Part shown: positions 4,715 through 63,694 of the stretch, piece by piece
How the letters are laid out: the number at the start of each line of letters is the position of its first letter
Numbering within the stretch: position 1 is the stretch's first letter
DNA from: Octopus sinensis
Taxonomy: Eukaryota
Reading direction: 5' to 3'
Assembly (NCBI RefSeq): GCF_006345805.1
Contig: NC_043017.1
Span: 31,248,001-31,312,000, forward strand
Length of the DNA stretch: 64,000 nt
Made by a program: the position numbers and the translations under genes
Notes under the pieces: model-generated
What the model was told of the DNA's origin: nothing
The model's input: only the letters and a program-made list of their open reading frames with translations
The model's database searches: none

Positions 4715-5132
4715 GCGGCGAGCTAGCAGAAACGTTAGCACGCCGGGCGAAATGCTTAGCGGTATTTCGTCTGCGTTACGTTGTGAGTTCAAATTCCGCC
4801 GAGGTCGACTTTGCCTTTCATCCTTTCGGGGTCGATAAATTAAGTACCAGTTACGCACTGGGGTCGATGTAATCGACTTAATACCTATGTCTGTCCTTGT
4901 TTGTCCCCTCTGTGTTTAGCCCCTTGTGGGTAATAAATAAATAAATAGGTATTTCGTCTGCGTTACGTTGTGAGTTCAAATTCCGCCGAGGTCGACTTTG
5001 CCTTTCGTCCATTCAGGGTCGATAAATTAAGTACCAGTTACGAACTGGGGTCGATGTAATCGACTTAATACCTATGTCTATCCTTGTTTGTTCCCTCTGT
5101 GTTTAGCCCCTTGTGGGTAGTAAAGAAATAGG
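4715..5132 (+). mobile_element. SINE-A, head + 2 body units
   Basis: Head, B-box-like GAGTTCAAATTCC and tail. The second unit restarts at GTATTTCGTCTG (~4949). Confidence 0.9.
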
Positions 5133-5133
5133 T

Positions 5134-5290
5134 ATATTGCGAGTCAGTTGTTCGCATTCATTTAAGTCACAAATATATAAACTCATAGCCCAGACTACTG
5201 GATAAGTCTTTTAAAGACTTATCCAGTAGTCGGGGCTATGAGTTTATATATTTGTGACTTAAATGAATGCGAACAACTGACTCGCAATAT
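5134..5290. repeat. Near-perfect ~157-bp palindrome
   Basis: ATATTGCGAGTCAG...AAGTCTTT | AAAGACTT...CTGACTCGCAATAT. Confidence 0.93.
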
Positions 5291-8590: not shown

Positions 8591-8973
8591 GTGGAGGCGC
8601 AATGGCCCAGTGATTAGGGCAGCGGACTATCGGTCATAGAATCGCGGTTTCGATTCCCAGACCGGGCGATGTGAGTGTTTATTGAGCGAAAACACCTAAA
8701 GCTCCACGAGGCTCCGGCAGGGGATGGTGGTGATCCTTGCTGTACTCTTTCACCACAATTTTCTCTCACTCTTACTTCCTGTTTCTGTTGTACCTGTATT
8801 TCAAAGGGCCGGCCTTGTCACTCTCTGTGTCACGCTGAATATCCCCGAGAACTACGTTAAGGGTACACGTGTCTGTGGAGTGCTCAGCCACTTACACGTT
8901 AATTTCACGAGCAGGCTGTTCCGTTGATTCGGATCAACCGGAACCCTCGTCGTCGTAACCGACAGAGTGCTTC
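8591..8973 (+). mobile_element. SINE-C (tRNA-derived head)
   Basis: TGGCCCAGTGATTAGGGC A-box and GTTTCGATTCCC B-box. Ends CGTCGTAACCGAC(A/G)GAGTGCTTC. TCGCTTTAA is repeated on the flanks. Confidence 0.9.
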
Positions 8974-10907: not shown

Positions 10908-11293
10908 GGCGGCGAGCTGGCAGAAACGCTCGCGCGCCGGGCGTAATGCGTAGCCGTATTTCGTCTGTCGTTACGTTCCGAGTTCAAATTCCGCCGAGGT
11001 CGACTTTGCCTTTCATCCTTTCGGGGTCGATAAATTAAGTACCAGTTACGCACTGTGGTCGATGTAATCGACTTAATCCGTTTGTCTGTCCTCTCTGTGT
11101 TTAGCCCCTTGTGTGTAGTAAAGAAATAGGTATTTCGTCTGTCGTTACGTTCTGAGTTCAAATTCCGCCGAGGTCGACTTTGCCTTTCATCCTTTCGGGG
11201 TCGATAAATTAAGTACCAGTTACGCACTTAATCCGTTTGTCTGTCTTTGTTTGTCCTCTCTGGGTTTAGCCCCTTGTGGGTAGTAAAGAAATA
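10908..11293 (+). mobile_element. SINE-A, head + 2 body units, with TSD
   Basis: TSD GGTTTCAGCATGTTTGA at 10890-10906 and 11294-11310. The second unit restarts at ~11130 GTATTTCGTCTGTCG. Confidence 0.92.
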
Positions 11294-11434: not shown

Positions 11435-11765
11435 CTCATTCGGTCATGAATGACCATGGGATTGCACCAAGAAAGTTACCCTCCTGGACACAAGTTCGGG
11501 CAAGGTTGTTTATGGAAGACCAGCAATCATCTATACATACCAGCCTCCCCTCTCTCCGCCACCAATGTTGAAAAAGGGAAAGGCAAAGACGCCTATGAGG
11601 CTCGGCATCAGCGTTACTGCAACTCATTTCTACAGCTGAGTGGACTGGAGCAACGTGAAATAAAGTGTCTTGCTCAAGAACACAACACTCAACCCAGTCC
11701 TGGAATCGAACTCAATACCTTATGATTGTGCGCTCAATGCTTTAACCACTGTACCATGCATCTTA
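11435..11765 (-). mobile_element. SINE with the same head/central domain as 44329-44628 but a different 3' tail
   Basis: tRNA-like head at ~11700-11765 and the shared central domain. The tail ends in a GGTCATTCATGACC stem-loop. Confidence 0.7.
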
Positions 11766-11801: not shown

Positions 11802-11864
11802 GGCAGCGAGCTGGCAGAAATGTTAGCACGCCGGGTGAAATGCGTAGCCGTATTTCGTCTGCCG
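11802..11864 (+). mobile_element. SINE-A 5' head (A-box side), host of the LINE insertion
   Basis: GGCAGCGAGCTGGCAGAAATGTTAGCACGCCGGGTGAAATGCGTAGCCGTATTTCGTCTGCCG matches the heads of the intact copies at 4715 and 10908. Confidence 0.9.
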
Positions 11865-12028
11865 CACATGTGTTCGTGAAGTAAGAATTGCTGTTTCGTG
11901 GTGTTAATATTGTTAACAACTGTTGTTTCTTGTTAAACTGTTGAATAACTTAACTGTTGGAGTTTTCAATTGAAAACACTTAGTGCTTGTGGTAGCACGC
12001 GTTGTTCATTCCCCCTTTGGGGGGAAGA

Positions 12029-13558
12029 ATGTCGTCTAGCATGGAGCCTACCGTTGGAGCAGAAATACTTGTTTCTCCTGTTGAGAGGAGGAAATACATG
12101 TCCGGCGAGGAGCCAACTACAGACAAGGAAATAGGGGTTTCCCCCGCTACAAGAAGGAATAGCAGAGAGGATAATATATTTGATATTTTTGGAGATGTGT
12201 CTGAGAGCTCGTCAGAACTTTCACCAGAAGAGTTTCCGACTTTGCCAGAGAACAAAGGCATTGTGTCGAAGAGAATAATTGATGTGCCTAGCATCCAGAT
12301 AGAACCAAAAAATGGAAAAAAAAGTTTTGCGTTGGCTGCTGGGGGTGGAACCCAGATACTGTCGACGAATAAAAGCGAAATTATGAAATACAGCAAAATG
12401 ATGGAAATAAATGACAACAGTGTGAAAATTGAACCTCCGCAAAAGTTATTACAGGAAGAAAAGCAAAAAACAATAATTTTCAAAACATATTGTCTACAAA
12501 ATAGAAAAATTGAAAGAATGTCAGAAGAGAAAATAGAAAAGTGCTTAAAGCCAATATTGGGCGACGTAGTATTTCTGAGAAGAGGAAAAAAATTCGGAAC
12601 GGTGGAAGTAAGGTTCACCAATAAAGAAATAGCACACAAGAACTCAGTGGAAACGTTGAAAACGAACGACGTGGAGTTAATACCCTATTATATGGGGATG
12701 AGGACGTCGCGAATAAAAATTACAAGGGTCCCGCCAGAGGTCGAACCTATGTGGTTGTTGGCGGCAGTCCTAATCAAAGAGGTAGAAAAAATTACTCTCC
12801 TCCAGGCTACCGCTACGGAAAACCCACGCTGGGATGGTAAAACAATTAATCTTCTCATTCAAGCGGACCCTAAAATAATTCAAACAATTCCTGAGACAAT
12901 TGAGGTAGGGGAGGAGAACCTCGTGGTGTTTGTTGAGGGCCGAAAACCTCGATGTTTTTTATGTGGTCAATTAGGCCACATTCGAAGGAACTGCAAGGAA
13001 AATGAAGAAGAGGAGGAAGAGGAGAAAAAAGACAAAGAGGAAGAAGATAAAGAAGAAACAGATGAGAAAAAAACAACAAACAAAAGAAAAATACAACCAG
13101 CAACCCAGCCGAGAGCGGCGACTACTACAGAACAACGACCAAAAAAGACTGCCAGAAGAGAAAAAGAAGAAAAAGGCATAATAGCCGTATACACTAAAGA
13201 TACTGAGCTCATGAGAGACATTCAACTCATAAAGACTGTAAAAAAAATTGATAACCTTTCAGAGGAATTTATCAATTACGACATATATGAAGTCTCAAAT
13301 AAGACTTATAGAATTCTACAAAATAAGTACAGAAAGACTGTATCTTCATTGAGATTAGATTTTAACAAGTCGATATTTCATGGATTACCAGCTCCGATCC
13401 CGCGAGAAAAGGAAAAGGTGGAGATTCCCCCTCCACCTGATAATTCTGTGTCGGTGGTGAGACGGGATTTTGACAAATCTATTTCCCAAGACCGTCCACC
13501 TCCGACCCTGGATAAAAAAAAGGTGGAGGGTCCCCCTCCACCGGACAATCCTAATTAA
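12029..13558 (+). CDS. LINE ORF1 nucleic-acid-binding protein with CCHC zinc knuckle
   Basis: First in-frame ATG is at 12029 (the ORF track opens at TTG 12002). Contains CFLCGQLGHIRRNC (CX2CX4HX4C), an acidic E/K tract and a duplicated Pro-rich C-terminal motif. Confidence 0.9.
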   Translation: MSSSMEPTVGAEILVSPVERRKYMSGEEPTTDKEIGVSPATRRNSREDNIFDIFGDVSESSSELSPEEFPTLPENKGIVSKRIIDVPSIQIEPKNGKKSFALAAGGGTQILSTNKSEIMKYSKMMEINDNSVKIEPPQKLLQEEKQKTIIFKTYCLQNRKIERMSEEKIEKCLKPILGDVVFLRRGKKFGTVEVRFTNKEIAHKNSVETLKTNDVELIPYYMGMRTSRIKITRVPPEVEPMWLLAAVLIKEVEKITLLQATATENPRWDGKTINLLIQADPKIIQTIPETIEVGEENLVVFVEGRKPRCFLCGQLGHIRRNCKENEEEEEEEKKDKEEEDKEETDEKKTTNKRKIQPATQPRAATTTEQRPKKTARREKEEKGIIAVYTKDTELMRDIQLIKTVKKIDNLSEEFINYDIYEVSNKTYRILQNKYRKTVSSLRLDFNKSIFHGLPAPIPREKEKVEIPPPPDNSVSVVRRDFDKSISQDRPPPTLDKKKVEGPPPPDNPN

Positions 13559-13569
13559 ACAGGTAAGTG

Positions 13570-16500
13570 ATGGCTATTCACATTGGTTGTTTAAATGTTC
13601 ATGGCCTGTTGTCAAGCTGGAAGCAAGGACGCTTTCTGAATGACATCAGGTCGAGAAATTTGGATGTAATTGTTGCAACGGAAACCCGGGTGAAGGGGCC
13701 AAGAGATCTGCTCCCCCTCCTGAACGGCTACGAGAAATACGTTTCTCCGAGTCGGGCGGGAGGTGGGGGTGGGGTGTTGGTCCTACTAAAAAGAAACCGG
13801 GTAGCCGAGAAAAAGTTGGTTTTTTCTGACCCAGAAGGCAGGCTGGTCGTTCTCGACTTGACATTCAGTTGTGGCAAGACAATCAGGCTGGTCGCTATTT
13901 ATGCACCAAACATTATTGGCCCGCAAACTGAATATTTTCGTGGCCTAGGAAAGTTCCTAGCCACGTCGCATTCACTAGTAGTGTTAGGAGACTCTAATAC
14001 AATATGTGCAGCACACACAGATTGTGTTGGCTCAAACTCGAACATGAACAGAAAATGTAACACAGGCTTTCGGGATCTGCTAAGTCAATTTCAGCTAGCA
14101 GATCCATATAGGTTGGAGCACCCGAACACTCCACAGTGGACGTGGTCAAATAGTGACGGGTCTACCAGAACATATCTAGATAGGATTTTAATTAGAGAAA
14201 AAGATAAGTCCATAGTTGAGTGTCCACAGTTTTTTCTAGTCAGCTACAGTGACCACAAGATGGTTACCTGTAAACTGACGGTAGATAAGTTGCATAGACA
14301 GGGATCTGGCTACTGGAAACTCAATACGTCCCTTTTGGCGATTGAGGAGTACAGAAAGCGGATCAAGATGTTAATACAGAGGGCATTAACAGGTACCATC
14401 ATTAATAACAAATGGTGGTACGCCCTAAAAAGAGCCATCAAATATGAGTCTATTAGGTTTAGCATAAGTTTAGCTAAGAAGGGACGTAAAATAGGAGATG
14501 GTCTAGTTAAGGAACTAGAAGAAGCCTGGAGGACTGGTAATACAGACCAAGCGAGGGTGAAAAGACTGGAGTTAAACCAGCATCTTGAAGCCCACCACAT
14601 GGGAAGTATTACCAGAGCTAAGTTACGTGCAATGGGAAGTGAAGGAATCAAAGCCGCTGGATGGGCCCGAGTGGTGGAAGCTCGGCAAGGAAATAGTTCC
14701 TCTATTCGGTCTTTGACGAATCAAAATGGTGTCTTGATAAACGAACCCGAGAAAATGTGTGAGGTCTTTCGGGAGTACTTCGCCCAGCTGTTCGGGGGTG
14801 ACGGCGGTCCTGGTGGTGGGAGAGCCCTCGAGGACTTTCTTACCGGGCTGCCGTGCCTCTCGGGGTCGGATGCGGAGTCTTGCGAAGGGCCAATCACACT
14901 GGAGGAGGTGATGGAGGCTTTGGCCGATTGTAAAGCGGGTAAGTCGCCGGGACTTGATGGTCTTCCGTACGAGCTGTATAAATGTATGCCAGACTTGTTC
15001 GGGCAACTACTGACTGACGTGTACGCGAACTGGAAACAGAATGGGTTTATCCCCAGATCTGTGCGCCGGGGAGTAGTGACGTTGGTCAGAAAGGACCCGG
15101 ACAAGGGGGACGTTCTAGAGAATTTCAGGCCCATCACTCTGTTAAACGCAGAAGTGAAGATTTTGGCCAAGGTTCTAGCAAAAAGGTTGGCGCGTGTCGC
15201 GAATGGTATAGTCGGGGAGGCACAGACATGTGCCATCCCAGGCAGAACCATTCAGGATACCCTCCATCTTATTCGCTATACCATAGAGAGGTTTGGTAAT
15301 AAATCTGGCAAAGGTGGGGCATTGGTGCATTTGGACCAGTCTAAAGCTTTTGATAGGGTTGACCATCGATACCTAGCGACTGTACTTGCGCGGTTTGGCC
15401 TGGGCCTTGGCTTCCTCAGGTGGTTTATCGCTTTGTACCACAACATTGACTCGATAGTTCGGGTGAACGGTTTCCTTTCGAAGCCGTTCTGCATCAGACG
15501 CTCGGTTCGTCAAGGATGTCCGCTTTCACCACTTTTGTATGTGATGGCTCTCGAGCCATTACTGCAAAGGTTGAGTGGCATCCCGAGAGAACCAGGACTA
15601 GAGGAGTTTGTTACGGCTTTCGCGGATGATATCACTATCAGTGTAACCACAGTGGTACGCCTACGTGAAGTAGGTAAGACTATTGAGGCTTACGAGGAGG
15701 TAGCAGGAGCAAAGATTAACCGGGAAAAGTCGGTCGGCTTGCAGCTCGGCACCTGGGTTGGCAAGTCGATGCCTTCAGACAGTGTTGTTAGGCGCTGGAC
15801 GGAGGGACCGGTTAAGTTGCTGGGAGTCTGGTTTGGACCAGGCCTCCAGATAGAGAAGAACTGGACGGAGGTATTGAGCAGGGTGGCTGCAGTAGTCAAG
15901 ACTTGGTCTTGGCGGTGGCTATCCCTGAAAGGGAGGGCGGAAGTGGCCAATGTGTTTATCGCATCGGTCATTACCTACCGCCTGACTGTCGTGCCCTGTC
16001 CGGATTCGTGGTTGATCAGGTTGGAGAGACAGCTCTTTCGCTTTTTGTGGAAGGGCAGGTCGCCACTTGTGAAACGCTCTGTCTGCTGTCAAAAGCCTTT
16101 AAATGGAGGTTTAGGGATGCCTTGGTTAATGATGCGCAGACATGCGTTGAGGTTGAGGCACCTCTGGATTCTCCTGGATAGTGAACGGGTGTGGTCTCCG
16201 CTGGCCAGACAAATGTTCCCTGAGTTCAAGAGTTTTTGCGAACAGGAAGCCTGGTGTTCTCGTAGACCGAGGTCGAGTGAGTGGCATAAAGAGTGCCGTA
16301 AGGCCCTCTTGCTGTTCCGGCGCTCGGGCAACGCCAGCGGTGGGGGTTCCACACGGATTTTATATAGTGGGTTGGTAGAGTCTGAATGCGACGATGGCCT
16401 GGGGTCGACTCTAGGTCTCGGATTTATTCAACTGGACAGCTTGTTTCATCGTACATTCGGGTTGAGAACGTTGGACAACTTCCAAAAGTCCTTAACCTGG

Positions 16501-16971
16501 CAATGCTACAGAGGTGCCTTGCCCGTTTGGGATAAGCTCGCAAGACATGGTAAACGTCAGTCGCCGACCTGTCCAAGATGCGGTGGGGACAGGGAAACCG
16601 TCCCTCACGCTATTGTTCAGTGTCCGGAGATAACTGAAATGTGGGCTTATGCTGAACATCTGTTGTCCGGCGAAGGAAGAGTACGGCTGTCGACTGAGTC
16701 AATTATAAAAATTGACCCACCGGGAGTTCTAACGAACGAAGGTAAGAATTGTTTTCTCACGGTTGTAGCAATAGCAAAAGAGGCTGTATGGAATACTAGG
16801 ATAAAAGGAATTAAGACAGGCAACTTTATCTCTGGTGACAATTTACGATCCTTTTTTTCTTTTCATTTGAAAAGGAAACTGTGGCTGGAGAAGAGGTGTC
16901 TGTCAGAGTGTACGTTCCAAAAGAGATGGAAGTATGTTGCACGAGTGTTGTGCGTGCAAGGAACCGTGTGA
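13570..16971 (+). CDS. LINE ORF2: AP endonuclease + reverse transcriptase + C-terminal zinc finger
   Basis: APE motifs LNVHGL, ATET, AIYAP, GDSN, YLDRI, SDH. The YWKLN motif is typical of L1/Tx1. RT motifs KSPGLDG, FRPITLLN, LDQSKAFDRV, RQGCPLSP, FADD. C-terminal CPRC...H...C. No stops or frameshifts over ~1133 aa. Confidence 0.97.
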   Translation: MAIHIGCLNVHGLLSSWKQGRFLNDIRSRNLDVIVATETRVKGPRDLLPLLNGYEKYVSPSRAGGGGGVLVLLKRNRVAEKKLVFSDPEGRLVVLDLTFSCGKTIRLVAIYAPNIIGPQTEYFRGLGKFLATSHSLVVLGDSNTICAAHTDCVGSNSNMNRKCNTGFRDLLSQFQLADPYRLEHPNTPQWTWSNSDGSTRTYLDRILIREKDKSIVECPQFFLVSYSDHKMVTCKLTVDKLHRQGSGYWKLNTSLLAIEEYRKRIKMLIQRALTGTIINNKWWYALKRAIKYESIRFSISLAKKGRKIGDGLVKELEEAWRTGNTDQARVKRLELNQHLEAHHMGSITRAKLRAMGSEGIKAAGWARVVEARQGNSSSIRSLTNQNGVLINEPEKMCEVFREYFAQLFGGDGGPGGGRALEDFLTGLPCLSGSDAESCEGPITLEEVMEALADCKAGKSPGLDGLPYELYKCMPDLFGQLLTDVYANWKQNGFIPRSVRRGVVTLVRKDPDKGDVLENFRPITLLNAEVKILAKVLAKRLARVANGIVGEAQTCAIPGRTIQDTLHLIRYTIERFGNKSGKGGALVHLDQSKAFDRVDHRYLATVLARFGLGLGFLRWFIALYHNIDSIVRVNGFLSKPFCIRRSVRQGCPLSPLLYVMALEPLLQRLSGIPREPGLEEFVTAFADDITISVTTVVRLREVGKTIEAYEEVAGAKINREKSVGLQLGTWVGKSMPSDSVVRRWTEGPVKLLGVWFGPGLQIEKNWTEVLSRVAAVVKTWSWRWLSLKGRAEVANVFIASVITYRLTVVPCPDSWLIRLERQLFRFLWKGRSPLVKRSVCCQKPLNGGLGMPWLMMRRHALRLRHLWILLDSERVWSPLARQMFPEFKSFCEQEAWCSRRPRSSEWHKECRKALLLFRRSGNASGGGSTRILYSGLVESECDDGLGSTLGLGFIQLDSLFHRTFGLRTLDNFQKSLTWQCYRGALPVWDKLARHGKRQSPTCPRCGGDRETVPHAIVQCPEITEMWAYAEHLLSGEGRVRLSTESIIKIDPPGVLTNEGKNCFLTVVAIAKEAVWNTRIKGIKTGNFISGDNLRSFFSFHLKRKLWLEKRCLSECTFQKRWKYVARVLCVQGTV

Positions 16972-17219
16972 ATAGACGAGAAAAAAAAAAAAAAAGGAAA
17001 AATAAAAAGGTATCAGCGGTAGATCGGGGCTTGTGGGATCGGAGCGTAACTTGATCATCGCTTCATTTGTATTGTTTTTGTACTGTGTATTCCATTCGAT
17101 TTTTATGTATTGTATTTTATTTTTGATGTCACATTTATGTAAAATCATATCGATTCACTGATCCCATCAGTTGTACTGTCCATATCTATGTTTGGCCCCC
17201 GGTGGGCAATAAAGAAATT

Positions 17220-17970
17220 CGTATTTCGTCTGCCGTTACGTTCTGAGTTCAAATTCTGCCGAGGTTGACTTTGCCTTTCATCCTTTCGGGGTCGATAAGT
17301 TAAGTACTAGTTACGCACTGGGGTCGAGGTAATCGACTTAATCCGTTTGTCTGTCCTTGTTTGTCCTCTCTGTGTTTAGCCCCTTGTGGGTAGTAAAGAA
17401 ATAGGTATTTCGACTACCGCTACGTTCTGAGTTCACATTCCGCCGAGGTCGACTTTGTCTTTCATCCTTTCGGGGTCGATAAATTAAGTACCAGTTACGC
17501 ACTGGGGTCGATGTAATCTACTTAATCCGTTTGTCTGTCCTTGTTTGTCCTCTCTGTGTTTAGCCGCTTGTGGGTAGTAAAGAAATGGGTATTTCGTCCG
17601 CCGTTACGTTCTGAGTTCAAATTCCGCAGAGGTCGACTTTGCCTTTCATCCTTTCGGGGTCGATAAATTAAGTACCAGTTACGCACTGGAGTTAATGTAA
17701 TCGACTTAATCCGTTTGTCTGTCCTTGTTTGTCCTCTCTGTGTTTAGCCGCTTGTGGGTAGTAAAGAAATGGGTATTTCGTCCGCCGTTACGTTCTGAGT
17801 TCAAATTCCGCAGAGGTCGACTTTGCCTTCATCCTTTCGGGGTCGATAAATTAAGTACCAGTTACGCACTGGAGTCAATGTAATCGACTTAATCCGTTTG
17901 TCTGTCCTTGTTTGTCCTCTCTGTGTTTAGCCCCTTCTGGGTAGTAAAGAAATAGGTATTTTGTCTGCCG
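17220..17970 (+). repeat. Tandem array of four headless SINE-A units (~184-bp period) plus a terminal 15-bp target copy
   Basis: Units start with GTATTTCG at 17221, 17405, 17589 and 17773 and each ends ...TAAAGAAATRG. A final GTATTTTGTCTGCCG at 17956-17970 is followed by unrelated sequence. Confidence 0.93.
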
Positions 17971-19580: not shown

Positions 19581-20674
19581 AAGCTCGATGATGTCGTGTA
19601 TGAGAAAGTTCTTGAACTATGTGCAAGTAATTCAACAGCAATAATTTATTGTTAAAGCGTTTAGTGCAGTGGTTACCAAACCGATTTTTACTTATCAACC
19701 AACTTTGGTTCGTATTTTATTTCCGTAGTCATTCCGTGTATAAAAGAAACTAGTTTTATAGATAATGCTTTCAAATTTCCTATTTCACTTTTCGCACATT
19801 CACTTGTGTAGCTAAACTCAAGTTATGCTCCAATAATATTTTTACTGTTAAAATGCTGACCTCTGTTAATTATGCTGAGAGAGAAATGTGTAATTCTTTT
19901 GTAAACTAAGTTTTTTTCCTTCATTACTTAGCTTGTCTGTAATGCTTTTACGTGATTACCTGAATGGGAAAGCGAATTGGGAAAGAAAAAGAGGGAAAGA
20001 AAAGAGAGAGAAAAAGAGAGTAAGGTGAAGAGGGAGAGAGAAAGAGGGAGAGTGATGTGTATTGAGCCTATAAAACTGTGTATAAAGTACATAAAGTGTA
20101 TATATAAAGAGCATTAAGTAATCATCGTATTCCAGTTTCCTTCTCTTTTCAGATGAGTGAATATCTTTTTATACAAACACAACACAGGCTACGCTTTCAG
20201 GGCTTTTGAATAAAGTTTTCAGAAATAACCCAACACGTTTACCATTAATGCTGTGAAATAATCACTGGTCCCGCTAGTATATAATATTTTGGGATACCTT
20301 TAGTCAATGTGTCAGAGTATATGGACGGCCCGTGTTAGCTGGCCATCGAATCTTATCTACAAAACTTCTGTAACCGAGCTCAAAGTGCATTGAATTGCTG
20401 CTTAACAAATATAGCCATTGCACCTTACTTCTATGGTTACTACAATTTAATGGCAGACTAGTTGTGTCTCTACCGTGCATGCACTCTATCCAGCCAAATG
20501 TCGCTGAATATTAACAATATGGTGGATGTATCTAAGGCAGTAGGTTGGTAGAATTGTTTGCATGCTGGACAAAATGTTTAGTAGCATTTCATTCGTCATT
20601 ACGTTCTGAGTTCAAATGCTGCCGCAGTCAACTTTGCCTTTCATCCTTTCGAGGTCAATAAAATGAATACCCAT

Positions 20675-20904
20675 TATTTTACTACACACAAGGGGCTAAA
20701 CATAGAGGGGACAAACAAGGACAGACATACGAATTAAGTCGATTACATCGAGCCCAGTGCATAATTGGTACTTAATTCATCGACCCCGAAAGGATGAAAG
20801 GCAAAATCGACCTCGGCAGAATTTGAACTCAGAACGTAACGGCAGACGAAATACGGCTACGCCTTTCGCCTGACGTGCTAACGGTTCTGCCTGCTCGCCG
20901 CCTT
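20675..20904 (-). mobile_element. Young SINE-A inserted antisense into an older SINE-A-related copy (~20534-20992, +) that has a different tail
   Basis: A complete reverse-complement SINE-A interrupts a diverged + strand copy that ends ...GGCCTTGCGCCAAAATCTGAAACC. Confidence 0.8.
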
Positions 20905-21839
20905 ACCAGTTGATCACTTGGGGTCACTATAATCGACTTAACTCCACCCCAGCCCGCCCTAAATTGCTGGCCTTGCGCCAAAATCTGAAACCAATATAAT
21001 GGATGTATCTCAGACATATAAACCCGGTAGCTTAGCCAAATGAATACTGAGGATTCCTTAAGCCTAAAACCAGTACCATTCATTCAATTCTACACATAAA
21101 GTACTCTTAGCCACACCTGAATTGTGATATTAATACATCTCATTCATTTCCAGGATAATGTATACATTCCTATAGATCTGTTGTTCTCGGCTGGGGGTTC
21201 GTATGGCCCTTGTGATTCCGTATGACTCTTGAGGATCCATGTTATATTTTGTTAAAATTTATATAAATAAAATGGCCATACTATATATTTTATATATTTT
21301 AATATATTTTATACATTGTAGAACAATGTATAAAATATATTAACAACTTTCTAATACAATTCCTAATGAAATTTAATTCTAAAACCACAATGGGATTTTT
21401 AAACATCAAATGATGTTTATGAGGGTCCGTCTGAGTAAAATCTGAATCAAAGAGGGCCATGGGTAAGAAATGGCTGTAAACCACTGCTCTGGGTGTTAGG
21501 CCCTTGAAATTATCATCCGAATTTTTTCCCTCCTTAAGGAAGATATTCCAAACAAATTAGCATTGGTAATATACAACATCGTTTTTTATCATAGGCTAAA
21601 TTTCCTTGCGTATTCATGCGCAAAATTCTACACGCATACAGTAGTTCTATCGTAATTATTTTAGCTGGTAGGAGTTTGAGCTTCAAGGATAATTGTATAT
21701 GTAATATTCTCTTCAAGGTTAGGTAAATATCGCTTTATTTGTGGTAAGAAATCGACCACGTTATCTATTATAGCCACAGATTATGTATGTTTCGTTAGAC
21801 ATTCGACTAGAGAATAATTATTTTTACTTATTTACACAT

Positions 21840-23953: not shown

Positions 23954-24404
23954 TATACATATAACTGAAGCACGTGGCCTGGTGGTTAGGAAGTTGTATT
24001 CATGATTCATGATCGTAAGATCGTGTGTTCGATTCCGGGCCGGGTGTTACGTTATTCTTTCACAAAACACTTCATCTCAGGTTAATCTGTGATTTCTTCG
24101 ATATTTGAAATACATACATACATACATATATATATATATATACATATATATATACGTATATATACGCGTGTGCATCTGGGTGTGTGCGCGCGCCTGTGCT
24201 TATATATTGGATGCTGTATATAGTAACATGCTGAAATGGTTAACTGCTCTAGTTGTCCTCTCCGTTAAAACGTATCAGTGGCATTGCTGTCTCAGACACA
24301 CCTTGCTGACAAAAGTAACCGAAAGTAAGAAATAAAAAAAAGCGTTTTCCAGAATACGAAAAGCCGGATAATAAAAGAACAGATAGTAGGAAGCATTTTC
24401 TTAT

Positions 24405-24558
24405 TTATTTATTGCCCACAAGGGGCTAAACATGGAGGGGACAAACAAGGACAGACAAACGGACAAAGTCGATTACATCGACCGCAGAGCGTAACTGGTA
24501 CTTAATTAATCGACCCCGAAAGTGGGAAAGGCAAAGTCGACCTCGGCAGAATTTGAAA
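24405..24558 (-). mobile_element. 5'-truncated SINE-A
   Basis: Tail and body only, reverse complement. Confidence 0.8.
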
Positions 24559-25121: not shown

Positions 25122-25281
25122 AACTTAAGCCAATACATAAGATTAATTAATTTATATTATTTTAAATATATATCAAAATTATTAAAAAAAGATAATTAGT
25201 ATACTAATTATCTCTTTTTAATAATTTTGATATATATTTAAAATAATATTAATTAATTAATCTTATGTATTGGCTTAAGTT
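25122..25281. repeat. AT-rich ~160-bp palindrome
   Basis: Centre TAGTATACTA at ~25200. Arms AACTTAAGCCAATACATAAG / CTTATGTATTGGCTTAAGTT. Confidence 0.9.
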
Positions 25282-25761: not shown

Positions 25762-26268
25762 CATATCTATTTATCTATATGTAAGCATGTACATATATAC
25801 AGGCCATAGATTTAAAAGTATAACTTATTTCTAGTTATTACCTTCCCTTGAATTCAACCTCTCTAATATAATTAGTCTTAGAGAATTTTTCAGACTATTT
25901 TATTTTATTTATGTTAATTCCCATAATACTTAGCGCACGACAGAGAGACCAGCCATTTATACAAGAATGAGAAGGAATAAACAATATGCCCATTAGTATT
26001 CTTCCTTTGTTAGTATATTAACAAGATTTTTACTAATTTTATTCAATAAATTTATAACGCATATAGTGGTTTTTACTAAATAATCTATTTAAATACTATT
26101 AACTTACGTTTGACATAAAAAATGGCAATTTATACTTGTATAGATAAGGGTACATATTACCCTAAATTATTAATTCCTGTAATGATTATATAGATAGATT
26201 GTAGGATTTTATAAGTTTATAATATAGTCGTTGAGTGTTTTCTTAGATTTAGCATTTTCTATATATAT

Positions 26269-26574
26269 ATTCAACAATAATTGAGGAACGACCACAATAG
26301 ACCGTTCGACCCACTAGAAAGAGCAGCTAGGGCTCCAACCGCAAATAGTAGTAATTCCGAAATTTAAGGAAAAATTAAAAAACATTTACCCTGTATCTTT
26401 AGACAATGCATTGTTTCGGCGTTTTTTTAAGATACATTGTCTAAAGATACAGGGTAAATGTTTTTTAATTTTTCCTTAAATTTCAGAATTACTACTATTT
26501 GCGGTTGGAGACCTGGCTGCTCTTTCTAGTGGGTCGAACGGCCTATTGTGGTCGTTCCTCAATTATTGTTGAAT
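26269..26574. repeat. Inverted repeat (~140-bp arms, short spacer)
   Basis: ATTCAACAATAATTGAGGAACGACC... / ...GGTCGTTCCTCAATTATTGTTGAAT. Confidence 0.92.
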
Positions 26575-27048
26575 TTATTTGTCTCTATTTCCTCTTTCTC
26601 ACTAGACCGTGGTGGCAAAATAATTTCTATTGAATTTTTTGCTACCCTAAATTGATTAATTGATGGTATATATATATATTATATATATATATATATATAT
26701 CAGTATTGTAATTTTAGGTGTTTATTTTTTAATCTTTTTAAAGTTGTTTAGTTTTTAATTTCTTAAAAATTTGTATAAATTTTTAAATGCTTTTTCAAGT
26801 TGTTCAATTTTAAATTTTAAAAAAAGTTAAATTGTGATGTATATATTTTTATTATATTTTTTTTATATTGTATTCATATTCTTATTTTTCTATTTAATTT
26901 GACTTACAATTTGCACTTTTAACTTTGATCCGTTAATAATAATAACAATACGATAAATAGCCTGAGGGTGCACTGGTGGATTTATTATGTATTAGGTAAA
27001 GCCTTATAAACTGTATATAAAGATGTATATATATATTGTATATATATA

Positions 27049-32611: not shown

Positions 32612-32992
32612 GTGGAGGCGCAATGGCCCAGTGGTTAGGGTAGCGGACTCGCGGTCGTGGGATCGCGGTTTCGATTCCCAGACCGGGCATTGTGAGTGTT
32701 TATTGAGCGAAAACACCTAAAGCTTCACAAGGCTCCTGCAGGGGGTGGTGGTGAACCCTGCTGTACTGTTTCACCACAACTTAATCTCACTCTTTCTTCC
32801 TGTTTCTGTTGTACCTGTATTTCAAAGGGCCAGCCTTATCACACTCTGTGTCACGCTGAATCTCCTCGAGAACTACGTTAAGGGTGAACGTGTCTGTGGA
32901 ATGTTCAGCCACTTGCACGTTAATTCCCCGAGCAAGCTGTTCCATTGATCGTATCAGCTGGGACCCTCATCGTCGTAACCGACAGAGTGCTC
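32612..32992 (+). mobile_element. SINE-C
   Basis: Complete copy with a TAAACTATG flanking duplication. Confidence 0.9.
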
Positions 32993-33696: not shown

Positions 33697-33928
33697 TATT
33701 TCTTTATTACCCACAAGGGGCTAAACACAGAGAGGACAAACAAGGACAGACATAGGTATTAAGTCGATTACATCGACCCCAGTGCGTAACTGGTATTTAA
33801 TTTATCGACCCCGAAAGGATGAAAGGCAAAGTCGACCTCGGCGGAATTTGAACTCACAACGTAACACAGACGAAATAGCGCTAAGCATTTCGCCCGGCGT
33901 GCTAACGTTTCTGCCAGCTCGCCGCCTT
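33697..33928 (-). mobile_element. Full-length young SINE-A nested in an old SINE-A-related copy at the conserved target site
   Basis: TSD ACAGAG(A/G)AAATATC at 33683-33696 and 33929-33942. The old head is at 33943-33990 and the old body at ~33560-33682. Confidence 0.9.
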
Positions 33929-34441
33929 ACAGAGGAAATATCGCGAAGCATTTGGTCCGGCGTGCTAACCATTCTGCAAGTTGGCTACCTTTGATAAGTG
34001 GAATATTGATTTCAAATTTTAGCAGAAGGTCAGCAATTTCGGTGATGGGGAGGAGCTAAGTGGCTTAAATCGACCCCACAGCTCGATGACGATTTTATTA
34101 ATCTGTTGTCTGAATTTCCTAAAACATAAGTTCATAAAGGACTTTGAATAAAACATCGGAGCTTATCTTAACGCATGGCAGTACCATCTTATCGACCCTG
34201 AAAGGGATGAAAGGTAAAACCGATATCAGCGTAATTTGAACTCAGACGAAATGCTGCTAAGCATTTTATCGGGCGTGCTAACGATTCGGCCAGTTCGACG
34301 AGTAGTAGGATAATAGCAAGAAGTTATTCTTTACAGCAAGGCCTGGCGTGAATACTTCTAAACAACAATGACCTTCTATAGATAGACAGGAGCCAAGCGA
34401 CAATGTTAAGATGTAGTTACATTTAACCCCCCAAAAGGAAA

Positions 34442-40345: not shown

Positions 40346-40723
40346 TCCCGGTTGGTACAGATCCGATATAAATTCTACAAATTGTTTCAGAGTCTAATTA
40401 ATTCCAAAGACAAAAACCAAATACTCTTCTTGAAATGAAATATACATTATTCGTCAGGAGTTATATATTGCCATGAATAATTACGACCAAGAACAGACGG
40501 GAACGAACAAATAATGATTATTTCTTCGTTCCCATTTGGGCTATGAAAGGTCTTTGTATATTTTTGTTCGTAGTAATTATTCATAGCAATATGTAATTCC
40601 TGTCATTCCTGACGAAGAAACTAATTTTTTTTATTTCAAGAAGAGTTTTTCGTTTTCGTCTTTGGAATTAATTAGACTCCGAAACAATGTGCAGAATTTA
40701 TATTGGATCTGTAACAACCTGGA
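40345..40723. repeat. Older, diverged inverted repeat
   Basis: Arms GGTTGGTACAGATCCGATATAAATTCT... / ...AGAATTTATATTGGATCTGTAACAACC. Confidence 0.8.
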
Positions 40724-44072: not shown

Positions 44073-44328
44073 ATGTTGGCTTTTGGGTTCAAAGTGCTCT
44101 TGTTTATATCGCTACCGGAGTTGTTTCGATAAATGTTTGTTCACTCACGGCCTTTTCGCCGTAAAATTGAACCAACAAATAGACATGTAAGAACGAAGAA
44201 CGGGTAAAAATCTTTAAACTTTTCTTTTATTACAATTTCTGATTTCTGGATTACGTAATTTTATATTAAAACTTCCGTCCATAGTATTCCTGTGTATTTT
44301 AGACTTGTAAACGGTGTTGTTGATATAG

Positions 44329-44628
44329 GAGCACTCCGTCGGTTACGACGACGAGGGTCCCAGCTGACAACGATCAACGGAACAGTCTGCTCGTGAAATT
44401 AACGTGCAAGTGACTGAGCAATCCACAGACACGCGTACCCCTAACGTAGTTCTCAGGGAGATTCAGCGTGACACAAATACAGGTACTACTCATTTTTGCC
44501 AGCTGAGCAAACTGGAGCAACGTGAAATAAAGTGTCTTGCTCGAGGACACAACGCGTCGCCGGGAATCGAACTCACGACCTTACAATCGTGAGTCGAATG
44601 CCCTAACCACTAAGCCACGCGTCTTCAC
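44329..44628 (-). mobile_element. SINE with a distinct head/central domain but the SINE-C 3' tail
   Basis: The tail matches SINE-C. The head plus GCAAGACACTTTATTTCACGTTGCTCCAG domain matches 11620-11765. Confidence 0.8.
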
Positions 44629-47218: not shown

Positions 47219-47383
47219 GGCGCAGGAGTGGCTGTGTGGTAAGTAGCTTTCTAACCAGCCACATGGTTCCGGGTTCAGACCCACTGAGTGGCATCTTGGG
47301 CAAGTGCCTTCTGCCATAGCCCCGGGCCGACCAATGCCTTGTGAGTGGATTTGGTAGACGGAAACTGAAAGAAGCCCGTCGTA

Positions 47384-47425
<42 letters not shown>

Positions 47426-47676
47426 ATATATATATAATATATATATATATGTATGTGTGTGTGTGTTTGTATGTCTGTGTTTGTCCCCTAGCATTGCTTG
47501 ACAACCGATGCTGGTGTGTTTACGTCCCCGTCACTTAGCGGTTCGGCAAAAGAGACCGATAGAATAAGTACTGGGCTTGCAAAGAATAAGTCCCGGGGTC
47601 GATTTGCTCGATTAAAGGCGGTGCTCCAGCATGGCCGCAGTCAAATGACTGAAACAAGTAAAAGAGTAAAAGAGTA
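47219..47676 (+). mobile_element. SINE-B
   Basis: Complete copy, tail-to-tail with 47966-48382. Confidence 0.9.
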
Positions 47677-47965: not shown

Positions 47966-48382
47966 ACTCTCTTTACTCTTTTACTCTTTTACTTGTTTCA
48001 GTCATTTTGACTGCGGCTATGCTGGAGCACCGCCTTTGGTCGAGCAAATCGACCCCGGGACTTATTCTTTTGTAAGCCCAGTACTTATTCTATCGGTCTC
48101 TTTTGCCGAACCGCTAAGTAACGGGGACGTAAACTCACCAGCATCGGTTGTCAAGCAATGCTAGGGGGACACACACAGATACACAAACATACATGCACAC
48201 ATACATATATACATATATACGACGGGCTTCTTTCAGTTTCTGTCTACTAAATCCACTCACAAGGCATTGGTCGGCCCGGGGCTGTAGCAGAAGACACTTG
48301 CCCAAGATGCCACGCAGTGGGACTGAACCCGGAAACATGTGGTTGGTTAGCAAGCTACTTACCACACAGCCACTCCTGCGCC
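47966..48382 (-). mobile_element. SINE-B
   Basis: Complete reverse-complement copy. Confidence 0.9.
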
Positions 48383-55066: not shown

Positions 55067-55318
55067 GTTTCTTATTAGCCACACAGGGCTGCACACAGAC
55101 GGGACAGATTACAAAGTAGAGCTTTTCTTTTGGGGGAGAGAAAAAACGGGGGGGGGGGTCGATCAAAAGGGATCGTAAAAGGGAAAGAAAAGAAGAAAAC
55201 GATCAATAGGGATCGTGTATCAGAGAAACGTCATGATGTAAAGTTTAAAGGAGGAAGCAGATCAGGTTTATCCGTGGAAAGAAAAGCCAACGGAGAAGAC
55301 CGCGGTAACCTCGGTCAA
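55066..55318 (-). mobile_element. 3' UTR fragment of a related LINE family sharing the Tx1/SINE-A type tail
   Basis: The minus strand ends TGTCCCGTCTGTGTGCAGCCCTGTGTGGCTAATAAGAAAC, alignable by eye with the LINE 3' end at 17171-17219. It sits in (TA)n. Confidence 0.6.
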
Positions 55319-56173: not shown

Positions 56174-56590
56174 TATTTCTTTACAACCCACATGGGGCTA
56201 AATACAGAGGGGACAAACAAGGACAGACAAACGGATTAAGTCGATTACATCGACCCCAGTGCGTAACTGGTACTTAATTTATCGACCCCGAAACGATGAA
56301 AGGCAAAGTTGACCTGGGCGGAACTTGAACTCGGGACGTAACGACGGACGAAATACGTATTTCTTTACTACCCACTAGGGGCTAAACACAGAGAGGACAA
56401 ACAAGGACAGACAAACGGATTAAGCCGATTACATCGACTCCAGTGCGTAACTGGTACTTAATTTATCGACCCCGAAAGGATGAAAGGTAAAGTTGACCTC
56501 GGCGGAATTTGAACTCGGAACGTCACGACAGACGAAATACGGCTATGCATTTCGCCCGGCGTGCTAACGTTTCTGCCAGCTCGCCGCCTT
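56174..56590 (-). mobile_element. SINE-A, head + 2 body units, with TSD
   Basis: TSD AGATG(C/A)TCCTATATA at 56159-56173 and 56591-56605. Unit junction at ~56357. Confidence 0.9.
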
Positions 56591-58756: not shown

Positions 58757-58987
58757 TATTTCTTTACTGCCCACAAGGAGCTAAATACAGAGAGGACAAA
58801 CAAGGACAGACAAACGGATTAAGCCGATTACATCGACCCCAGTGCGTGACTGGTACTTAATTTATCGACTCCGAAAGGATGAAAGGCAAAGTCGACCTCG
58901 GCGGAATTTGAACTCACAACGTAACGGCAGACGAAATACTGCTAGGCATTTCGCCCAGCGTGCTAACGTTTCTGCCAGCTACCGTCG
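58757..58987 (-). mobile_element. SINE-A monomer
   Basis: Complete reverse-complement copy. Confidence 0.88.
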
Positions 58988-61614: not shown

Positions 61615-62033
61615 ACTCTTTACTCTTTTACTCTTTTACTTGTTTCAGTCATTTGACTGCGGCCATGCTGGAGCACCGCCTTTAGTCGATCAAATCGACC
61701 CCGAGACTTATACTTTGTAAGCCCAGTACTTATTCTATCGGTCTCTTTTTGCCGAACCGCTAAGTGACGGTGACGTAAACACACCAGCATCGGTTGTCAA
61801 GCAATGCTAGGGGCACAAACACAGACACACAAACATACACACACACATATATATATATATATACATATATACGACAGGCTTCTTTCAGTTTCCGTCTACC
61901 AAATCCACTCACAAGGCATTGGTCGGCCCGGGGCTATAGTAGAAGACACTTGTCCAAGATGCCACGCAGTGGGACTGAACCCGCAACAATGTGGTTGGTT
62001 AGCAAGCTACTTACCACACAGCCACTCCTGCGC
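61615..62033 (-). mobile_element. SINE-B
   Basis: Complete reverse-complement copy. Confidence 0.9.
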
Positions 62034-62059
62034 CTATAATGGTGTATATACATATATTT

Positions 62060-62440: not shown

Positions 62441-62577
62441 TATGTCTGATTGTCTGAGTTCGTATATTTCTGTGATACTTTTGATGACTCCTTAGGTTCT
62501 GGTGAAATTATTTGCGAATTCTAGAGGAAGCCTCGGCCTGAACGTAAATGATTTCTTCTTGTGTGTAAGACGAATGA

Positions 62578-62960
62578 GTGGATGCGCAATGGCCCAGTGG
62601 TTAGGGCAGCGGACTCGCGGTCATAGGATCGCGGATTCGATTCGCAGACCGGGCGTTGTGAGTGTTTATTGAGCGAAAACACCTAAAAGCTCCACGAGGC
62701 TCCGGCAGGGGATGGTGGTGATCCCTGCTGTACTCTTTCACCACAACTTTCTCTCACTCTTACTTCATGTTTCTGTTGTACCTGTATTTCAAAGGGCCGG
62801 CCTTGTCACTCTCTGTGTCACGCTGAATATCCCCGAGAACTACATTAAGGGTACACGTGTCTGTGGAATGCTCAGCCACTTACACGTTAATTTCACGAGC
62901 AGGCTGTTCCGTTGATCGGATCAACCGGAACCCTCGTCGTCGTAACCGACGGAGTGCTTC
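62578..62960 (+). mobile_element. SINE-C
   Basis: Complete copy. Confidence 0.9.
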
Positions 62961-63200: not shown

Positions 63201-63425
63201 TATTTCTTTACTACCCACAAGGGGCTAAACACAGAGGAGACAAACAAGGACAGACATTAAGTCGATTACATCGACCCCAGTGCGTAACTGGTACTTTATT
63301 TATCGACCCCAAAAGGATGAAAGGCAAAGTCGACCTCGGCGGAATTTGAACTCAGAACGTAACGACAGACGAAATACCGCTTAGCATTTCACCCGGCGCG
63401 CTAACGTTTCTGCCAGCCCGCCGCC
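63201..63425 (-). mobile_element. SINE-A monomer
   Basis: Complete copy. TGTATGTATATAT is duplicated on both flanks. Confidence 0.88.
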
Positions 63426-63694
63426 TGTATGTATATATGTATGTATGTATGTATCTATGTATGCATACACACATATATTATGTGAGTATACATATATATC
63501 TGTAGGTGCATGAGTATCTATGTATCATTATCACAATATTCTTCGTCATCATCATTAAGTTTCTACGTTAGATTTTTTTAACAGTCGGGTTGGACTCGCA
63601 TTATCACTGATGTGCTTTTTGTCAAGTGCATGCTCTCCCTCTCATCAGAACCTACAAGCGCATATGTGTGCATATATTCCCTTTCCCTTTTCCA

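Follow-up and report, generated by a model that had tools for sequence, protein, structure and literature searches.

A candidate Tx1-like LINE in Octopus sinensis with a 3' tail and an insertion site in common with the SINE-A family

A locus of Octopus sinensis bears on the question whether the ancestral elements of the L1 clade recognised a particular RNA end or simply any poly(A). Many pairs of SINE and LINE have, as a rule, a 3' tail in common. In the window analysed here, a stretch of 64,000 nucleotides from contig NC_043017.1 numbered from its first letter, a LINE ends in a tail that recurs at the end of a SINE family, called SINE-A, and the LINE itself lies within a SINE-A copy. An earlier note, made from the letters alone, had read this as an L1-clade element with stringent 3' recognition and a tail-borrowing SINE. 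On balance, it seems probable that a Tx1-like LINE family copies SINE-A by way of the common tail and nests in SINE-A.

The LINE (11865-17219, forward strand) is a full-length L1/Tx1-type element with both ORFs open, and it is the one LINE locus in the 64-kb window. ORF1 (12041-13558, forward, 505 aa) has a CCHC knuckle (Pfam PF00098), and ORF2 (13570-16971, forward, 1133 aa) combines an APE endonuclease, a reverse transcriptase (RT) and a C-terminal zf-RVT domain (PF03372, PF00078, PF13966), with its catalytic positions intact. This layout, with the endonuclease at the N-terminus of ORF2, followed by the RT and a C-terminal zinc motif, and with a separate ORF1, is that of the L1 group. In a comparison that covered clades with solved structures, the closest relative of ORF2 is human L1 ORF2p (E 1.9e-64, residues 5-867), while R2 gives E 1.6e-20. 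Assignment to the L1 clade is thus supported by the predicted domains and the structure match, as had been claimed. These features make the LINE L1-type; its Tx1 placement is not proven and is that of a candidate, favoured because a 29% relative (L002 72-263, 6094-6146) stops immediately ahead of a U1 snRNA gene in a contig that also has a U2 gene upstream. No long poly(A) precedes the U1 snRNA gene in this relative. Five ORF1 homologues were found, every one an Octopus protein (42-54%), and ORF1 resembles ZCCHC3-like CCHC proteins (0.88-0.89). An ORF2 relative, P0116, is 60% identical over 567 aa; together with P0125 it represents ORF2 fragments of a related family on short metagenome contigs, which may contain the 3' tail of that family. 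No relative of the LINE was found in viral contigs. Two further features of the coding region are the motif CAGGTAAGT at 13560-13568, between the ORF1 stop and the ORF2 start, which we take to resemble a splice donor, and an internal duplication at the end of ORF1 (13350-13552) that encodes a repeated proline-rich segment.

The tail that the LINE has in common with SINE-A comprises 42 nt (17177-17218, forward), includes AATAAA at 17208-17213, and is followed by a single T (17219) and then by the target duplication. Between the LINE and SINE-A ends, 34 of 42 columns are identical (score 42), and among the shuffled controls that had been proposed, none of 20,000 dinucleotide shuffles scored as high. 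The tail is terminal in both elements. When a full SINE-A copy was compared with the whole 5.3-kb LINE, the best match was the last window, with a score of 37, the next best reaching 23. A 5'-truncated SINE-A on the reverse strand (24397-24557) carries the LINE-like GGGCAATAAA in its tail, and SINE-like contigs in the public sequencing runs differ from the last 34 nt of the LINE at 2-3 positions (X3 records 28-32). A related tail is found in a third element on the reverse strand (55067-55318), a pyrimidine-rich sequence of 253 nt that is single-copy in the window and lies in a TA tract. It agrees with SINE-A at 31 of 40 positions, a score reached by 0 of 20,000 shuffles; its direct match to the LINE is weak (score 18, reached by 525 of 20,000 shuffles). 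The idea of one tail common to all three elements therefore holds for SINE-A with each of the other two and is weak between those two. The third element resembles SINE-A more closely than it does the LINE, and it shares with the LINE the sequence TTGTA..CTGTCC upstream of the SINE match. It is likely to be the 3' UTR of another, related family, whose parent was not found. The three ends quoted in the earlier note are all present in the sequence, and each of them, as had been said, lacks poly(A) and runs ...GAAA(T/C), one base, then the duplication. The tail is lineage-restricted, since none of the 33 distant LINE relatives with enough 3' sequence (among 80 loci) scored above 24, compared with 42 here.

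The direction of borrowing can be read from an older sister SINE, which is interrupted by SINE-A at 20540-21000 (forward). Its head and body are those of SINE-A as far as ATCGACTTAA, where another tail takes over (TGGC/CTTGC/GCCA, 6 nt, GAAAC); a second copy with the older tail lies at 34003-34300 (reverse). Because the older sister has the same head and body and a different tail, SINE-A likely took over its tail, which bears out the proposal of a tail-borrowing SINE; the tail is new to SINE-A, since it starts where SINE-A departs from the older sister. The window also contains two further SINE families, whose ends are different. One is abundant, with about 16 pieces (47219-47668, 47985-48382, 61625-62034 and others); it includes a TA/TG microsatellite in its interior and ends in (GTAAAAGA)n. 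The other (8592-8972, 32612-32992, 62577-62958, 44328-44626) has target-site duplications (TSDs) of about 9-12 bp by inspection, and its copy at 44328 has a different head, related to an element at 11622-11760.

The similarity between the tails leaves some room for a sister Tx1-like family as the driver of SINE-A, in which case the LINE at 11865-17219 would merely target SINE-A and the tail would be ancestral to several octopus families. Such a driver may be considered because the LINE-SINE identity is 81%, as against SINE-A units that lie 2-7% from their majority sequence, and because related families exist (ORF1 42-54%, ORF2 60%); moreover, the third element is closer to SINE-A than to the LINE, and many SINE-A copies sit outside SINEs. 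Nevertheless, some SINE variants are at least 91% identical to the last 34 nt of the LINE, and the insertions of SINE and LINE agree in their site and in their junction offset. We regard a sister driver as unlikely, and were it true, the claim at the level of the clade would stay and only the family would change.

The preferred reading, in which the family of this LINE itself serves SINE-A, draws further on the insertion site. As the earlier note had missed, the LINE splits one SINE-A, whose 5' head (11802-11864, forward) precedes it and whose remainder follows it, and the 16-bp TSD CGTATTTCGTCTGCCG is perfect (left copy 11849-11864, right copy 17220-17235, both forward). The probability of the LINE hitting such a site by chance is about 1.6e-4 (19 sites). 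All seven SINE-to-SINE joins in the window restart at this same LINE target site, each lacking the head of about 48 nt, and a full-length SINE-A (33698-33928, reverse) occupies the equivalent position in an older, diverged SINE, where the duplication measures 14 bp and contains one mismatch. At the independent 3' junctions, the succession of tail, one base and N-R-T-A-T occurs in 6 of 10 (background 0.035; p 4e-7, for a motif picked after looking), and 8 of 10 agree with at most one mismatch (background 0.153); a miss at 20673 becomes a match if the end is set one base earlier. The motif position is target-derived in all five junctions that have a TSD, and the junction signature is common to the LINE, the SINE and the third element. 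A check of the LINE 5' UTR by eye saw no copy of the target motif, and the exact junction pattern had no match in metagenome contigs. Across the junction (17214-17227 and the SINE joins), the tail end GAAAT is a short inverted repeat of the target ATTTC, which may be due to chance.

Public sequencing runs provide a second view of this junction. The stretch is contained in 20 of the 24 listed runs, and the contigs of six were compared; over the SINE-containing stretch they are swamped by SINE contigs. A contig of run X10 (16949-17231) passes from the LINE 3' UTR into the SINE site at a depth of 87, compared with 75-112 for the LINE body. In X11, a contig runs from the LINE to past 17228, reaching the SINE site at a depth of 60 against 32-37 for the LINE body, and in X3 another enters the SINE site and extends to 17226. 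At the opposite end, an X7 contig (11837-13798) connects the SINE head with the LINE 5' end, while an X1 contig begins at 11863, right after a position that is variable among SINE-A copies, so that residence of the LINE in several SINE copies would fit. In X10 and X11, the main contigs reach depths of 32-112, whereas diverged relatives stay at 3-6. These data suggest a family of tens of LINE copies with a common SINE-site junction, contig depth being no copy number; the junction contigs of X10, X11 and X3 might also reflect a single shared locus. In each run, 6-16 contigs exit the tail at 17218 into unlike AT-rich DNA. The examples leaving at this position have 34-nt matches and SINE-like sequence upstream and look like SINE variants, although some may be LINE copies at other sites. 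Loose ends at 14956 (X7, X10) have a reverse complement that resembles the LINE near 14990; they could stem from an inverted 5' end or from a related family. The one locus and the run contigs point to the multicopy SINE-A site as a possible preference of the LINE.

SINE-A is an interspersed, non-coding element of about 230 nt, of which 14 units at 8 loci were compared. Dimers occur at 10908-11292 (forward), flanked as a whole by a 17-bp TSD, at 56175-56590 (reverse), flanked as a whole by a 15-bp TSD with one mismatch, and at 4715-5130 (forward), where no TSD was found. Monomers lie at 63202-63427 (reverse, in a TA/CATA tract, 13-bp TSD) and at 58758-58985 (reverse, no TSD found), and a further SINE-A is inserted antisense within the older SINE at 20673-20904 (reverse, a duplication of about 4 bp by inspection). 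Downstream of the LINE, four head-less units, about 184 nt long and all beginning anew at the target site, occupy 17220-17970 (forward) and are followed by a last 15-nt copy of the site. The array stops exactly after this copy (17956-17970), where unrelated DNA follows, and no matching remainder of the unit was seen within the window. The earlier note had given TSDs of 13-17 bp for LINE and SINE alike; the LINE has 16 bp and four of the eight SINE-A insertions have 17, 15, 14 and 13 bp, whereas the other four have no TSD of at least 9 bp. TSD length alone was rejected as a proof of partnership, as RTE-driven hagfish SINEs also have about 17 bp in the part of PMC7245038 considered.

Unit divergence is 5.2% within arrays (9 pairs) and 7.4% between arrays (82 pairs), and some joins have therefore been inherited or duplicated rather than formed by new insertions. 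Units c3 and c4 of the array differ by 1.7%, while c1, c2 and c3 differ by 6-7%, the same as unlinked copies. The T4 terminator is missing from four of the five SINE-A copies checked. As to the origin of the head, ARAGORN predicted no tRNA gene and Rfam gave no match on the element; motifs that we take to be A-box-like (about 11812-11822, in the interrupted head) and B-box-like (about 17245-17257, after the right duplication copy) were seen by eye. SINE-A may also resemble the MetaSINEs, which have a 66-bp Meta domain after the head. Octopus tRNA-derived SINEs were reportedly described by Ohshima and Okada in 1994, and SINE-A may be one of these or one of the MetaSINEs. The dimer at 4715-5130 is directly followed by a near-perfect palindrome of about 150 bp (5133-5290), possibly a MITE; similar self-inverted stretches are found at 25122-25281, 26265-26578 and 40347-40722.

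Within the tail, a stem of 4 bp with a loop of 5 nt (GCCC/CCGGT/GGGC) is predicted at 17195-17207 (forward). All three ends had been said to keep such a stem-loop. The 4-bp stem can indeed form, with pair probabilities of 0.35-0.97 depending on copy and context; in the third element, its register is slid by one base. In none of six cases does the stem exceed shuffles in stability (z +1.0 to -1.2). The covariation check that had been proposed found no two-sided change at any of the four pairs among 16 sequences, all changes being one-sided. A descriptor drawn up after inspection (a 4-bp stem with an inner C-G, a loop starting with C, a spacer of 5-6 nt and GAAAY) has 12 matches in the window, namely nine SINE-A copies, the LINE, the third element and one older-SINE tail, compared with 0.16 in shuffled windows, which hints at a conserved shape with changed pairs. 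In 338 kb of distant relatives there was one match, on the opposite strand. The older SINE tail was rejected as evidence of covariation, because its similarity to the new tail is not significant (11-12 of 24 matches, with 23-66% of shuffles equally good) and because MAFFT prefers another register. A stem-loop in the tail is thus a plausible prediction with weak support, given the lack of covariation and a stability no greater than in shuffles, and as the recognised element it is putative.

Since the LINE nests at the SINE join site, the absence of poly(A) could also be accounted for in another way, with or without recognition of a stem, if read-through RNA pairs with the primer strand. As AATAAA lies 5 nt from the LINE end, a transcript cleaved after it would extend into the target, and this extension could pair with the primer strand. 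A rival reading is a non-stringent mechanism, in which the pairing of read-through RNA with the nicked target sets the 3' end, the stem-loop is incidental and the units arose mostly by unequal exchange after one founding event. Such a mechanism would agree with cleavage falling in the target, with the two SINE ends that have no TSD and still continue AGGTA, with the unpaired changes in the stem, and with near-identical neighbouring units and the scarcity of T4 terminators. It would leave unexplained why 42 nt are shared and not only the last few; in addition, RTAT comes from the target wherever a TSD is present, and the 6-7% divergence among c1, c2 and c3 speaks against unequal exchange as their main source. 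It is accordingly judged quite improbable. Least probable is a reversed direction, in which a LINE invariably inserting right before a SINE-A unit was read through into the SINE tail and, following a deletion, retained this as its own end, SINE-A having another driver: a SINE-A tail does lie 184 nt downstream of the LINE end and the older SINE already carries a tail of similar architecture, but the tail is new to the SINE, the third element has it in a TA tract rather than in a SINE, and TTGTA..CTGTCC extends the likeness of LINE and third element beyond the SINE match.

Under the favoured reading, the 3' end of SINE-A would derive from the LINE family, and SINE-A would be copied by LINE proteins, while the LINE endonuclease would prefer the SINE-A join site. 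ORF2p may bind the last 40 nt or so of the RNA, probably at the small stem-loop and the A-rich spacer. The bottom strand would be nicked at N-R-T-A-T sites, of which CGTATTTCG in the SINE head would be the best and those in TA tracts looser substitutes, and reverse transcription would begin at ...GAAAU, perhaps aided by read-through RNA paired with the primer strand. When SINE RNA enters another SINE-A, the cDNA could anneal to the identical upstream target, so that a head-less unit is added, whereas a diverged older SINE as target would allow the full head to be retained; the full SINE-A head kept at the diverged target is in keeping with this annealing step. Arrays could also be enlarged by local duplication and read-through dimers. 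Not every SINE join need be a new insertion, since two dimers are flanked as a whole by TSDs, the divergence of c3 from c4 is 1.7% and units resemble each other more within an array than between arrays. The LINE and SINE-A appear to work like a stringent LINE/SINE pair as far as a homologous terminal tail goes, a tail in which covariation was not seen.

A closed loop, in which the Tx1-like LINE mobilises a SINE that is also its own preferred target, is a more tentative proposal, possible and somewhat short of probable. If it is true, the passenger SINE multiplies harmless landing sites for its driver and builds its own head-to-tail arrays, and one RNA end, made of stem-loop and read-through target, is used for recognition as well as for priming, with no poly(A). 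The pair would then provide an animal example of stringent recognition in the L1 clade, and the two partners would be mutualists instead of host and mere parasite. It would also name the driver of one very abundant octopus SINE and explain how SINE tandem arrays can form. With an animal element that is intact, ends in a tail free of poly(A) and has a natural passenger, the question of the ancestral RNA end becomes testable with one reporter construct, and an APE element that prefers a particular site and bears a 42-nt recognition tag would be of interest to gene insertion tools.

The literature already contains L1-clade tail sharing in plants and an alga, and Tx1-driven SINEs without shared tails. 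A search for Tx1/tRNA-SINE tail sharing, or for a LINE targeting its own SINE, found no report; Repbase notes, Ohshima and Okada 1994, Kojima and Fujiwara 2004 and the SINEBase supplement lay outside it and could contain one. Neither Kojima 2018 and 2020 (PMC5786205, PMC7245038) nor a 2024 survey of bivalve SINE partners (PMC11481361) mentions Tx1 in the parts consulted. For MetaSINEs, whose tails have been swapped, the partner LINEs are stated as unknown in the sections seen of PMC4824008. SINEs make up 11.6% of the O. vulgaris assembly, in which 13 L1-Tx1 families have been recently active; the 2026 octopus repeat annotation counts these families and, in the excerpts available, does not discuss their tails and targets (PMC13282606).

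The contrast with mammalian L1 that had been drawn is less new than it seemed, as L1-clade tail-sharing pairs have been published for maize, sorghum and Chlamydomonas (PMC3472496). Three such pairs, from grasses and Chlamydomonas, are included among 58 SINE/LINE pairs, and Table 1 of the same paper has no animal L1 or Tx1 partner (PMC3747384). They comprise LINE1-1_ZM with ZmSINE2/3 and L1-1_CR with SINEX-3_CR (PMC3472496, PMC3747384). As in octopus, an L1-clade LINE has a common 3' end with its SINE (about 45-80 nt there), a hairpin is predicted and stringency is inferred (PMC3472496). Unlike here, the plant hairpin shows compensatory changes, and L1-1_CR ends in poly(A); SINE targeting by these partners was not found in the passages of both papers that were covered (PMC3472496, PMC3747384).

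The L2 elements ZfL2-1, ZfL2-2 and UnaL2 also have a 3' stem-loop that was proposed as the binding site of ORF2p; however, they belong to another clade, carry terminal repeats and have had this role demonstrated by mutants and binding assays (PMC4176376). In targeting, the closest likeness is to Tx1-Mar and SINEU of crocodilians, a Tx1-type LINE and a SINE that prefer the same site in another repeat (Kojima 2015, PMC4494074). There, too, TSDs flank tandem SINE insertions, and mobilisation in trans was inferred. SINEU elements have snRNA heads, poly(A) and a Mariner target, whereas here the tail is shared, poly(A) is absent and the SINE itself is the target; no LINE with the 3' end of SINEU-1 was found in that study (PMC4494074). 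Xenopus Tx1L, Keno, Kibi and Koshi are likewise APE-type Tx1 elements inserting in a multicopy target, but what they enter is a DNA transposon, U2 genes or microsatellites and not a SINE that has their own tail (PMC4494074). Finally, SINE-derived satellites of squamates resemble the octopus arrays in being tandem arrays formed from part of a SINE; they have been explained mainly by unequal recombination, whereas here the unit boundary coincides with the insertion site of the LINE (PMC10702118).
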